DNA of 64,000 nucleotides from contig NW_021832834.1 of NCBI RefSeq assembly GCF_006345805.1, positions 1 to 64,000 on the forward strand. Direction: 5' to 3'. The notes under the pieces were generated by a model. The model had not been told where the DNA came from, made no database searches, and saw nothing but the letters and a program-made list of their open reading frames with translations. Below are positions 5,343 through 17,400 of this stretch, one piece after another (the stretch's first letter is position 1; the number at the start of each line of letters is the position of its first letter). Origin of the DNA: Octopus sinensis. Lineage: Eukaryota. A program made the translations under genes and the position numbers.

Positions 5343-5434
5343 ATTACTCGTTATTTCAACGCAATTTGCAGTGTCAAATATGTTCAGGTTTTACGGGCAA
5401 GGAATCAGAAGTGACAACCTGTACAGGCGATGAG
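5343..5434 (+). CDS. aGPCR exon A: N-terminal half of LU/three-finger domain ([31 protein letters not shown])
   Basis: tgtatag acceptor, gag|gtaagc donor; phase 1 to 0; LxCxxC motif typical of LU-domain starts. Confidence 0.75.
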
Positions 5435-8400
5435 GTAAGCTGAAATGTTACATTCTTTATATTAATATACACTTAACCCTCACTTAAATCCAATATGGCT
5501 ACGTAACCTGTCCCAAGATTTCGCAAATTGTTATAGATGCCCATGAAATCGGAAGTAGCTACAGACACCCTCTCAGTCTTTCCATCCTTCAATCAGCAGA
5601 ACAACATGGATCAGTGGAATGTGTGAACATACGTGCCTCGGAGTCAATTTGGAAGCAAGGTCCGTTGTTCTGGGACCTCCGATCGCATGACTTATGAGAT
5701 ATTCCTGTATCTTAGAATTTTCGTTTGAACGATGGCTATGTTATCAGGCAAGTCACTGATTTTCAAAGTATGGACAGTTATTCTCCACATCTGTGCTACC
5801 AGATGCTCCACAACGATGTTCTGAAAGCAATTCATTCGTACAGTGTAAGTGGTATTCCCAGTTTAGTAGTTGTGTGATACCACTGTGTCAAGGGAATCGA
5901 TTTCTCAGGGCATCAGAAAGGTTTCCTAGGGAACCCTCGATCTCAATTAGGTGAATTTGAAACTGCACTTTATACACAAGGCTGTGTGAGAGTAATGCAA
6001 AGAAGGGGCTACAAAGAACATCGAAATCCTGCTTTTACGGTTCCAGGGGTCTATAGATTTATGACTGGATTTTCCTGATGTAACTGTGCAGACTCGGAGC
6101 ATCCTAGATTGGTCATCTTAATCGTATCTTGAAAGAGTGTTAGGCCAGCAGATAAGGATAGTGTAGGGTACCCTTAGTTTAAAGTGGAAGTTGGACGTGT
6201 ATCTTCGAACTTGCAAAGATTACAGGGGTTACACTAATAAATTTGTGAAGCAATACAATAGTTGAGAGGGATGATCATCCACAACCAGTGGTAGTGCGTC
6301 CTTAAAGGGACGAAGATAACGTTTAAGTTAGAGAGCGTTTAGGGAAGTGCTATCGATAGGGTCCACACAGAGATGTGAAGCTTTCCCACAGCATTTCGTT
6401 CATGTGTTCGGAACAGGCAATGGATCGGAGACAGTAGTGTTCTGCAGTACTTATATCAATGGACTATCGGCAGATGTGAAGTGTATCGAGAAGCTGATTA
6501 CATCATTTAAAATATTGAGAGCAATAGACTCTTGCACAAGACGTAAATAGTCCGGTTTGGATGGTCCTCCTTTCGGGTTTTAGTAATACATGCCAGACGA
6601 AATCATTCTGCAGTCACTCGTTCAATGTCCGGATATTGCTGATTTGTGGAGTTATGATAAACTCCTGTCTGATGGGGGACGGTGCTGGCTATCAACCGAG
6701 TACGTCATGATGAATGCTCCGCCACCAACCTTTATCAGAGTAGGGAAAGTAGTTTTCCTCTGTCTGGTGACTATAACGAAGGAGGTTGTGTGTAAGATGT
6801 AAGTTATGAGTTCTAAGACATTCTTCTTTTGGTCGAGGCCTCATTGACCTCTTCAAGATTCAATAAATTGTGTGTGGAGAGGAAGGTGCTGTCCATAAGT
6901 GAATTTATTGAAAGGTTGGTGAAAACGGTTGACGTTGCAAGAGCGAATGGCACTGCTCTAAACGTATAGACCCGTGTGACGGAAGAAAATTAATTGGAGA
7001 GGGCAGTTGCCTTTAATATTCAGGGTGAGGTTGGATGGTGGGGTTCTTCGATTGGTTCCAGAGTTCCTCCTCCATTACGAGGATCACATCACCATCATCT
7101 TTAAACTCGTATGCCATTCTCTTTTATATTGTATACCGTGTATGCTTATTTCCATATATTTACAATTCCATTCTATGAGCATCCACACACTTTATGTCTT
7201 TATTTGTATTGGTCACTCATCAGTCGCCCATTACCAAAATACAAAAATGATTATTATAATCATTATTATTGGGATATATCCAACTTTACCAGAAATAATT
7301 ACTTCATGTTTTTTTTAAGACGTCAGCAACATAGAATTTTCGCTGATAACAATAAAGTTTCTAAAACGGGTTGAGAGATTCGAAGGATTGCCTTGTTCTG
7401 ATGTTACAACACTAATCATGATAACAGGAGATGTGGGTTCGAATTCCGCAGGCAGCCTCCGACACCATTTTTATCCAAAGGGTTTTCTAAACCAATATTA
7501 ACACTCTATTATTTATAGCTTGCCTAATCCAAGATCCATCGTTTCAAGAAAGAATTATCAAGAAGTGCGATGTTCTTCAGTGATTCTTCAGGATCTGGGA
7601 TATTTTCTCTCCAACTTTTATGCGAATATAGTGTATCTTCATTTTATTGCAATAGAATATGCATGCCGATGAGAAATATATACTCTACCTTTTGAATCCA
7701 TTTATGCATTTTCTGTTTTATTTGCAAAACCTGAGTGTTTAATTCCAGCCCTTTATTTGATTATCCTTATTTACAGTAGTTACCGCTGCGCTTGTTTCTG
7801 TTGTTGCTGAGGTTCACACCTAAGATATTTCGTACACTTTCTATGAAGACTTCACTGTGCAATACGCAAAAAGTATCGGTTAAATGATAAGGTTTTCAAT
7901 AGAATTTATCATTTCTTTTTTTCTGCGTTTGGGAATGGGTGACAAAGCGTCGTTGATATGATAACATTAGGTATCTCCAACGTTTATCACACATCATTTA
8001 CAAGCGATAAATATAAGTAAATCTCCACAACATTGCTTATGCAGTTGTCTTTCAAGATTTCATCAGTTTGTATCGAACCAATTCGATGCTTTTCGATAAG
8101 TTTTTGAATAATCATTCATTTAACTTTCGCGCATACTAAATATTCCCTATGCTGTTGCTGTTGCTTGCAGCAGCAATAGTAGTAGTATCATCATCAGCAG
8201 AAGTGGTAGTATTATATGATTTTTGTATTTATTGCAACAGCCTGTATGTGAAAATAAGATAACGATGAATGGTGTTACACTGGAGTTTGAAAAATCCTGC
8301 AGCACATACAGAAAATGTCTTGCAGCTCTGAGAAACAATATCTTTCCATGCAATAAATGGACCAGTGGCGCTTCTTGTGTTAGTTGTTGCACCGGAAACT

Positions 8401-14400: not shown

Positions 14401-17400
14401 AATGTTTTTCTCACTTTCCTCTGGCATCGATGAAATATATATGCTTATTTATATAACGGACAATATTTGATATTTATCTTTCAGTTCCTCCGGAAATGTG
14501 GCACAATTAGAAATGCCAACAAATCAGTATGGCACATCACGAAAATGTTCACCATTCACTGGCGTCTGGCAAGAACCAGACATGTCTCAATGTTACAATA
14601 CAGAGAGGATCACCCAACAACTAAAGAACATCACAATCGTAGACATTGGTAAAGGTGAGTGTTTGGAAATGCTCTTAACGTAGTATTAGTAATAACAGTA
14701 ACAGCAGTAACAGGAGGGGTATATATATATATATATATATATATATATATATATATATATATATAATGTGTGTATGTGGTGTGTGTGTGTGTGTGTATAC
14801 ACATATATATATTTTTTAATTACGAGTATAATTATAATTAGGGTTCAGCAAAGATTTGCTTTACCACATACCGAAGTTTAGAAATAGCAGCCAAAGAACC
14901 TTAGCTATTTCTTCTACTATAAGAAGAGACTTCAGAACAAAACAAAATACTCGGAATAACCCACGGAGACAAAGAGGAAAAATAACGAAATTCACTCGGT
15001 ATTTGATTACCTATGGATGCGTTTCGGAATTAGATCGTTATGAAGAATGTAAAAATCATACTTCATGGTTTCAATGTATTTGACTTAGCCTCTACCTCGA
15101 AATTGCTGCTCTTCCACCAAAGCTTATACCAATATTAATCATTAGATCATCGACCCATATTCCTTTAAGTTCAACATGTAACTGAACAATAATTTTGTTC
15201 ATATTAACAGTTGGTTAAGATGGTGGAGGCGCAATGGCCCAGTAGCTAGGGCAGCGGACTCGCGGTCGTAGGATTGCGGTTTCGATTCCCAGGCCGGGCG
15301 TTGTGAGTGTTTATTGAGCGAAAACACCTAAAGCTCCACGAGGCTCCGGCAGGGATGGTGGTGATCCCTGCTGTACTCTTTCACCACAACTTTCTCTCAC
15401 TCTTACTTCCTGTTTCTGTTGTACCTGTATTTCAAAGGGCCGGCCTTGTCACTCTCTGTGTCACGCTGAATATCTCCGAGAACTACGTTAAGGGTACACG
15501 TGTCTGTGGAGTGCTCAGCCACTTACACGTTAATTTCACGAGCGGGCTGTTCCGTTGATCGGATCAACCGGAACCCTCGTCGTCGCAACTGACGGAGTGC
15601 TTCCACTCCACTGTTTAAGATGGCTGGTATATCACAGGTCATTGGTTGTCAATGTCATTATTTACAAACATCCACTATCAATTGTCTGTGTTACTCAAGT
15701 ATGTAGTGTTGTGCCACCCATCCACTCTTCCAGTTAGCGTTACAGAGCAGGAGACACTAACGATTTATCACAATGAATATATAACTGATGAACTGAACTC
15801 ATTTAGCTATCTCTGTGCTATATGAATTTGGAGATGTTCATTAACTTCCATTCATTCATTAATTTTGTGTGTGGCGTTTAATTTGCATCTAATATTTCAT
15901 CTGAAAGCATCTGTAAATTCCCTTAAATTTCATTTTAAATTTTTCGTTGCAGAAAATGTTGAGCAGGTTTCAACAATACTCAGCGATATTTCAAAGAAAT
16001 CAGTTTATTTCAAAGCAGAAGATATTGACTTGGCTGTTGATATTCAAGAGAAAATGCTGCCATTGATATCGAATGTGTCCGCCGAAATAGTACTAAAGAA
16101 TATACTTCTTAGTATCAACAATATGATAGACACACCGGAAGAGATTTTGGTTGAAGCAGAACAATCAAATGGAACTGGGAGCAGGTAAAACACATATCAC
16201 GTTTGCCGTCAGTGTAGCAGCAGCAGCAGCAGTAGCAGGGAAGTAGTAGTAGTAGTAGTGTTGGCGGTGGCGGTAGCAGTGGTGGTGGATGTAGTAGTAG
16301 TAAAAGGAGAAGGAGGAGGACTGGTTGGGTTAGCGCCGGTTGTAGTGGCTCTAGTGGTAGTAGTAGTAGTAGTAGTAGTAGTAGGAGAAGAAGAAGAATA
16401 GGAACAACAACATGAAAAGACGAAGAAATTGATGATGATGATGATGATAGTGATGATAAAGAAGCAACAACTGCAGCAGTAGCAGCAGACGTAGTAGAAA
16501 CAATAGTAGCATAAATAGATTTATTAATCAATATAATTAGGGTAATTACACTTATATCTAATTACGTATTTGAAACACACTCTTAGTTGAGATTTATTTT
16601 CTTGATTTTCTCACAGAATGCTGGACATTATAGAAGCAATCCTGGAAGAGATTCCACTGGAAGGGCAGCAACTCACAGCTTTATATTCTAATCTTGGTAT
16701 TGGTGTTATCAAAATGGAGAAGGACACGTTCAATGGGGCTGTCTATGGTATTTCATTTGGAAATAATAGAACTGAAGCTATGATAACGGTATAATACTTT
16801 CTCATGATTACTCCCTTATTAACCGTTTGTTCTAAATACCCAAATTGATAAAATCGTCACGACAATGCCCCAGCATGGCTTCAGTATAATGACTGAGAGA
16901 AGTAAAAGATAAAAGATATACTATACATTCTCCGCTGCTTAGACCATCAGTCAAGATGTTAAGAATAGTGATGATATATATATATATTATATATATATAT
17001 ATATATATATTAATAAATGTGTGTATGTGTGTGTGTGTGTGGTGGTGTATACCATATATAATTTTTTAATTACGAGTATAATTATAATTAGGGTTCAGCA
17101 AAGATTTGCTTTACCACATACCGAAGTTTAGAAATAGCAGCCAAGAACCTTAGCTATTTCTTCTACTATAAAAGAGACTTCAGAACAAAACAAAATACTC
17201 GGATACCCCACGGAGACAAAGAGGAAAAATAACGAAATTCACTCGGTATTTGATTACCTAGGATGCGTTTCGGAATTAGATCGTTATGAAGAATGTAAAA
17301 ATCATACTTCATGGTTTCAATGTATTTGACTTAGCCTCTACCTCGAAATTGCTGCTCTTCACCAAAGCTTATACCAATATTAATCATTAGATCATCGACC

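Follow-up and report, generated by a model that had tools for sequence, protein, structure and literature searches.

Two LU exons are spliced to a HormR exon

What kind of receptor is encoded by an adhesion G protein-coupled receptor (aGPCR) gene of Octopus sinensis in which two cysteine-rich exons precede a HormR exon? The gene lies in the first 64,000 nucleotides of contig NW_021832834.1 (forward strand; RefSeq assembly GCF_006345805.1), a stretch corresponding to C9305:1-64000 of the 2.72-Gb source genome and referred to here as the window. An earlier note, made from the letters alone, had read the two exons as a Ly6/uPAR (LU, three-finger) domain bounded by phase-1 introns and spliced at 12660 onto HormR and GAIN domains. 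The joining of the LU exons to HormR is real. Exons 5343-5434, 8241-8424, 12660-12774 and 14485-14654 form one continuous reading frame across GT-AG splice sites, and the joints are present in RNA contigs. AG/GT ends flank both LU exons, and the joined translation is in frame, contains 11 Cys and ends with CCTGNLCN, so that coordinates, splice ends and translation agree with the LU module and CCx4CN end as first read. The recomputed intron phases (1 before 5343, 0 at 5434/8241 and 1 at 8424/12660) confirm the phase-1 borders, and a tandem LU in the related protein P0043 shows the cassette duplicating. The first six exons of the gene agree letter for letter with the RefSeq partial model P0001, which ends just past exon 16617-16788.

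Four sequencing runs were aligned to 5250-14715 at a threshold of 92%, at which close paralogues map as well; the runs carry no database label and are presumed to be RNA, the joints themselves being GT-AG splices. Joints 5434/8241 and 8424/12660 both occur in three of the four runs (X1, X5 and X6, from three studies) and joint 12774/14485 in two of the four, while none of the joints was seen in run X2 over the aligned region. A single 390-nt contig (X6 record 25) runs across three exons, with 0, 1 and 0 differences. At position 5396, T (Cys) is found in X2 and X5, and G (Gly) in X1 and X6; assignment to the window gene is limited to the X6 contig and, probably, X1.

The LU region is predicted to adopt a three-finger fold

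Standard profiles recognise this LU domain poorly. The best Pfam match of the single sequence is UPAR_LY6_2 (E=0.014, 16 bits against a gathering score of 31.5), and none of 12 family members reached a Pfam LU match better than E=0.003. In contrast, a profile of 12 family LU sequences matched LYPD1/Lynx2 in the PDB with E=1.9e-4 and with Cys aligned across the entire domain, which argues against a chance match; candoxin, ACVR1 and LYPD6 followed at non-significant values. Profile searches thus bear out the domain assignments in part, with UPAR_LY6_2 and HRM below cut-off and the family LU profile and GPS significant. An AlphaFold2 model of the LU aligns with Lynx2/LYPD1 in Foldseek (TM score 0.69, root-mean-square deviation (rmsd) 3.0, 84 columns; sequence identity 24–25%) and further matches candoxin, SLURP-2, Prod1 and CD59, and most of the ten rows obtained with the Atlas model are LU proteins. 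Both profile and predicted models therefore favour the three-finger fold that had been proposed.

The family alignment shows 12 LU Cys in the relatives, 11 of them invariant, and the window copy lacks only Cys3, owing to a TGC>GGC change at 5396; the eight Cys of the LU core are all retained. The odd Cys count is thus accounted for by the loss of one disulfide partner, as the earlier note had suspected. Cys2 and Cys3 presumably form the optional loop-I disulfide of LU domains, and their joint absence from a gastropod relative fits a dispensable bond in this loop. Sequencing error as the source of the Gly was ruled out, since the copy on C8 and the RNA contigs X1 and X6 also carry it. Bonding of the odd Cys to the fifth HormR Cys was likewise ruled out, as P0012 combines a 12-Cys LU with five HormR Cys.

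A SEA-like spacer has been deleted between LU and HormR

LU and HormR are separated by 8 amino acids in the window copy, compared to 111–129 in 14 of 15 relatives (the fifteenth was unparsed) and to 100–124 in most paralogues of the genome. In the paralogues the spacer is encoded by three exons that form a phase 1-1 cassette, and its model is ferredoxin-like with a beta-alpha-beta-beta-alpha-beta order. LU adjoins HormR in the window copy only because an 11.1-kb deletion has removed these SEA-like exons; the direct neighbourhood stressed in the earlier note is thus true of this copy but represents a derived state. Exon skipping as the cause of the LU-HormR join was ruled out, since the genomic DNA itself lacks these exons. 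Two further copies (C27b and C8) also lack the SEA-like exons, via a different breakpoint, and the domain was therefore lost at least twice. That the paralogue spacer is a SEA domain is likely but unproven: there was no SEA match either in the structural comparison, where LRR matches filled the lists, or in the Atlas search, which gave only generic ferredoxin-like folds.

The segment 9321-13657 is only 72–83% identical to the sister copies, with flanks mostly at 90–97%, and may derive by recombination from a paralogue that is more distant. Among the best 40 of 1702 candidates, none was a closer donor for 12440-13660. The LU-HormR intron also contains an acidic open frame of 144 amino acids (10335-10769, + strand), which is partly shared with sister loci and has no Pfam match.

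The gene continues through GAIN and GPS to seven hydrophobic segments

Our whole-gene model comprises 14 exons from 5343 to 43272, with the junctions past 14654 placed by splice sites and paralogues. It encodes 827 amino acids without internal stop, comprising LU, HormR, GAIN, GPS and seven hydrophobic segments, and all 14 exons have canonical splice sites and an open frame. A search for missing micro-exons in this model gave none that was convincing and shifted one acceptor to 28210. A GAIN fold is predicted: among known structures, HormR-GAIN matches zebrafish Gpr126 best (Foldseek E=1.9e-6; VIA Z 12.4, rmsd 6.4, 136 aligned), and the predicted structure of subdomain A matches GPR126 and BAI3. 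With the frame open through GAIN-GPS to the seven-transmembrane (7TM) part, the HormR-GAIN context read downstream of LU is upheld. One mRNA of the window copy would thus join the ectodomain to the 7TM part, and by analogy the receptor may self-cleave, bind a ligand and couple to a G protein.

The GPS cleavage and tethered-agonist (Stachel) sequence is HL/TSFALQM. Among 45 LU-bearing proteins (isoforms included), position 6 of the agonist, which we take to belong to its hydrophobic motif, is Gln in the window copy, Leu in 43 others and Ile in one. The hydrophobic motif of the Stachel is crucial for 7TM binding (PMC9271043). The GPS exon is identical in two sister copies.

Upstream of LU, three sister copies carry an LRRCT exon about 4 kb before LU exon 1, and in two of them LRR (leucine-rich repeat) exons lie beyond it. 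Loose RNA ends ahead of 5343 translate as the end of an LRRCT. From these RNA ends and the sister copies we infer that the window copy, too, has upstream LRR exons. The order LU-HormR-GAIN in the earlier note was thus correct, but the LRR array that precedes LU in the relatives had been overlooked.

An expanded receptor family in the octopus genome

Searches of the genome gave 72 matches for LU exon 2 among 90 candidates scored, 36 of 63 for LU exon 1, 57 of 58 for the HormR exon and 47 of 59 for the GPS exon. At least 25 loci carry LU, HormR and GPS in order, 21 of them on chromosome-scale contigs, which supports the expanded octopus family that had been suggested. Of the 72 LU matches, C27 and C29 together hold 33, and another 26 are on unplaced contigs, possibly including haplotigs. 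Two-exon LU cassettes occur in tandem at C29:1825957-1844651 (four copies) and C29:2087014-2101778 (three copies), and P0043 contains three LUs with a period of 92 amino acids. The family likely diversifies by birth-and-death, gaining or losing phase 1-1 exon cassettes. The median ratio of nonsynonymous to synonymous substitution rates (dN/dS) of LU exon 2 is 0.51 across 28 distinct copies, with values above 1 in only 4% of pairs; positive selection on LU was not detected, the substitution counts being too small.

At C8:71428213-71453374 four matches to HormR exon 1 follow each other on one strand, suggesting repeated stalk modules, and in P0003 HormR is followed by a second SEA-like stretch. 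In P0021, a family member of O. bimaculoides, residues 1203-1277 form a C-terminal Death domain, as already noted for the octopus aGPCR family by Ritschard 2019 (PMC6408891). Family fragments (P0003, P0004, P0009, P0014 and P0022) bear public-database names of the kinds toll-like receptor 5, slit, chaoptin, decorin and LINGO-like.

Relatives in bivalves, gastropods and annelids

The earlier note had taken the architecture to be lineage-specific. Searches with LU only gave named matches in octopods alone, and the wider relatives surfaced only with the HormR-GAIN-7TM part of P0023 as query, which gave 113 proteins among 7,999 candidates scored. The LU profile matches 14 of 110 newly fetched proteins, from Pecten, Mytilus (3), Ostrea, Babylonia, Nucella, Gigantopelta (2), Plakobranchus, Owenia and Ridgeia plus two further records; the Owenia LU scored in the second profile round only and lies outside the training set. 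Within the same 110 proteins, the LU profile had no match in vertebrate, echinoderm, cnidarian or arthropod proteins or in a nemertean LRR-aGPCR. Bivalves, gastropods and annelids have the combination of LRR, a 12-Cys LU, a SEA-like domain, HormR, GAIN and 7TM, and few copies were found per non-cephalopod species; the full architecture is seen in single proteins, including Logan contigs of 4.0–4.8 kb. A cephalopod-specific architecture is thereby ruled out, the layout of LU, GAIN and 7tm_2 extending beyond cephalopods, and LU-aGPCRs have also been published for starfish, molluscs and arthropods.

For a tree, 67 proteins were chosen and 6 without the GPS pattern removed, leaving 61 rows; no root was inferred. 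Thirty-two LU-bearing rows and two N-terminally short models (34 rows) fall on one side of a branch with support 95/76, and the GPS-7TM part of the window gene lies inside a 19-row Octopus clade (100/99). A sister relationship of the family to vertebrate ADGRG is unsupported (44/70). These data fit an old lophotrochozoan gene that expanded in octopus.

Relation to known receptors

An LU on an aGPCR is already in print; new here are the complete domain plan and its age in Lophotrochozoa, the finding that it coincides with the known octopus expansion, and the shuffling at cassette level. The octopus-specific aGPCR expansion was described as group 3 by Ritschard 2019 (PMC6408891), with LRR in 5 of 22 members. 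Three of its entries, A0A0L8FLR8 (P0040), A0A0L8HDZ7 (P0037) and A0A0L8GYR2 (P0041), all contain a 12-Cys LU, and in our tree the representatives of their clusters fall together with the window gene. In contrast to our plan, that paper annotates LRR, GPS, 7TM and Death only; in its available parts, the text contains none of the terms Ly6, uPAR and three-finger, and the supplements contain neither Ly6 nor uPAR.

Starfish LU-aGPCRs (LyAr2/LyAp2) were reported in 2022 and 2024 (PMC9410279, PMC11595613) and molluscan and arthropod LU-GPCRs in a 2026 survey (PMC13719153). All share with the octopus receptors a LYPD6/Lynx2-type LU in the N-terminus of an adhesion-type GPCR, for the starfish proteins as a likeness in domain content. 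The survey example may belong to the family described here, its legend listing LRR and GPS. It differs in that its available part lists no annelid LU-7TM protein, whereas Owenia and Ridgeia carry one here, and its main text mentions neither the octopus expansion nor a SEA-like domain. Beyond this survey, we found nothing in the literature that links LU to octopus aGPCRs or to annelids, in a search whose coverage excluded most subscription journals.

ADGRG6/GPR126 (PDB 6v55; PMC6954182) has the same SEA-HormR-GAIN-7TM stalk order and is the best structural match, but its N-terminus is CUB-PTX where the octopus relatives have LRR-LU. The octopus receptors have no CUB-PTX and no supported grouping with vertebrate ADGRG, and the LU profile had no match in the vertebrate ADGRG proteins fetched; we therefore do not treat them as orthologues. 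LYPD1/Lynx2 and LYPD6 resemble the octopus LU in Cys spacing, the CCx4CN end and predicted fold. They are single GPI-anchored domains, however, whereas the octopus LU is internal to a receptor, without Cys3 and about 24% identical.

Our analysis provides a full ectodomain plan for a known but under-annotated receptor expansion, whose LU and SEA-like domains are missed by standard profiles, with the result that its members bear names such as 'toll-like', 'slit-like' or 'ADGRG6-like'. Bivalves, gastropods and annelids, with their low-copy relatives, offer tractable systems for ligand finding, and natural variants (SEA-like lost twice, tandem LUs, Stachel Leu6Gln) could serve to test how stalk length and the tethered agonist tune aGPCR signalling.

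Possible functions of the window copy and its family

With moderate confidence, we read the window gene as a young octopus copy of an LRR-LU-SEA-like-HormR-GAIN-7TM receptor that likely binds surface or matrix proteins and likely signals by self-cleavage and a tethered agonist. LRR and the predicted three-finger LU would engage protein ligands on cells or matrix, pull or binding would be relayed via HormR to the self-cleaved GAIN, and the tethered agonist from the cleaved GAIN would activate the 7TM part, following the general GAIN/tethered-agonist mechanism (PMC13062082, PMC9271043). Ectodomain length and conformation of Gpr126 tune its basal signalling (PMC6954182), and loss of the SEA-like domain may therefore retune the window copy, which is a short-stalk variant of the family with probably weakened tethered agonism. 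Several points weigh against this reading. The 5' exons for LRR and signal peptide are absent from the contig, and the RNA ends that read as LRRCT could stem from close paralogues. The RNA comparison covers 5250-14715, so that the connection with the 7TM exons, like the acceptor at 28210, is based on homology. The LU model is of moderate confidence (pLDDT blocks 51–82; whole-model pTM 0.46), and its VIA Z of 7.5 falls in the range that the tool calls common, which is weak if taken alone. Pfam SEA reaches only E=0.013, below cut-off, in 2 proteins; the support of the family branch is unstarred (SH-aLRT 76); and pN/pS against four sister copies is near 1 (0.4–2.9) in all domains, with small counts.

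This pN/pS range would also be expected if the window copy were a decaying or non-signalling duplicate in a functional family, acting as a decoy or truncated secreted ectodomain. Such decay would agree with the Cys2 left unpaired by the loss of Cys3, the SEA-like deletion, a Gln at Stachel position 6 found in 1 of 45 proteins, a RefSeq model that stops after the exon ending at 16788, and a sister copy (C27b) that has lost LU Cys. We nevertheless judge it unlikely, as an open frame and canonical splice sites are kept throughout the 14 exons, spliced contigs come from three studies, the GPS exon is unchanged in two other copies and the median dN/dS of LU exon 2 is well below 1, although on counts too small for significance. 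For the family as a whole, the variable LRR arrays, the tandem clusters on C27 and C29, the cassette shuffling, the C-terminal Death domain of one member and the high expression of group 3 in C. minor gills (PMC6408891) could point to immune or non-self receptors, with LRR and LU diversifying against microbes, and not to tissue adhesion or mechanosensing. This appears improbable given the few copies found per non-cephalopod species, the small share of LU exon pairs with dN/dS above 1 and the peak of the octopus-specific groups of O. bimaculoides in axial nerve cord, suckers and skin (PMC6408891).

A role of LU like that of Lynx2, acting in cis on nicotinic-type channels of the same membrane with the GPCR part as its tether, seems very improbable to us. 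The nearest solved LU is indeed Lynx2/LYPD1, a nicotinic receptor modulator, this idea has been put forward for starfish LyAr2 (PMC11595613), and the group is expressed in sucker and nerve cord (PMC6408891), but the identity to LYPD1 is low, LU sits between LRR and stalk domains, and LYPD6, a Wnt regulator, is of the 12-Cys type as well. A far-reaching extension, to which we give very little credence, is that LRR number, LU copies, stalk length and agonist strength, varied by exon-cassette shuffling across dozens of aGPCRs, form a combinatorial recognition code in octopus, with the Lynx2-like LU binding nicotinic-type receptors, including the sucker chemotactile receptors, and thereby linking touch to taste-by-touch in the arm. 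Sucker chemotactile receptors are themselves nicotinic-type.

Other features of the window

Table 1. Exons of the receptor gene and further features, with positions in the window.
Feature	Position	Strand	Basis
Long interspersed nuclear element (LINE) fragment cut by contig start; intron position of the paralogues' upstream LRRCT exon	1..1634	-	Pfam, sister-locus comparison
Exon: LRRCT linker end and LU Cys1, 2, 4; Cys3 to Gly (GGC 5396-5398)	5343..5434	+	translation, RNA contigs, alignment
Exon: LU Cys5-12, C-terminal CCTGNLCN; phase 0 to phase 1	8241..8424	+	translation, RNA joints, LU profile
Breakpoint of 11.1-kb deletion, three SEA-like exons removed	9320..9321	.	comparison with paralogue C27:17595494-17606610
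HormR exon 1	12660..12774	+	HRM E=0.034 (below cut-off), RNA joints
HormR exon 2 and start of GAIN subdomain A	14485..14654	+	RNA joints, structure match
GAIN subdomain A exon	15953..16184	+	frame, paralogues, structure match
GAIN exon; P0001 ends just after	16617..16788	+	RefSeq partial model
Tandem second copy of 14721-17004, GAIN exons frameshifted	16974..19237	+	13 mismatches, 36 gap openings
Mariner/Tc1 transposase remnants	26821-27708 and 43674-44174	+ and -	Pfam
GAIN subdomain B exon, acceptor inferred by homology	28210..28359	+	paralogue comparison
GAIN subdomain B exon	29684..29812	+	frame, splice sites
GPS exon; canonical H-L-T; Gln at tethered-agonist position 6	30302..30451	+	Pfam GPS E=1e-14
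7TM exon (TM1)	31124..31218	+	frame, hydrophobic segments
7TM exon (TM2)	35214..35337	+	frame, hydrophobic segments
7TM exon (TM3, TM4 start)	38581..38725	+	hydrophobic segments
7TM exon (remaining TM4, extracellular loop 2)	40184..40256	+	hydrophobic segments
Last exon: TM5-7, C-terminal tail, stop codon	42618..43272	+	7tm_2 E=3.6e-8
Two broken LINEs (reverse transcriptase, endonuclease, CCCH-finger open reading frame) and C2H2 zinc-finger remnant	50500-52300, 56500-60200 and 55540-55950		

The duplication at 14721-19237 has a unit of 2.3 kb, is bounded by (AT)n and is not found in four sister loci. Because of this absence and of its mismatches and gaps, the second copy is likely an artefact of unpolished long-read assembly.

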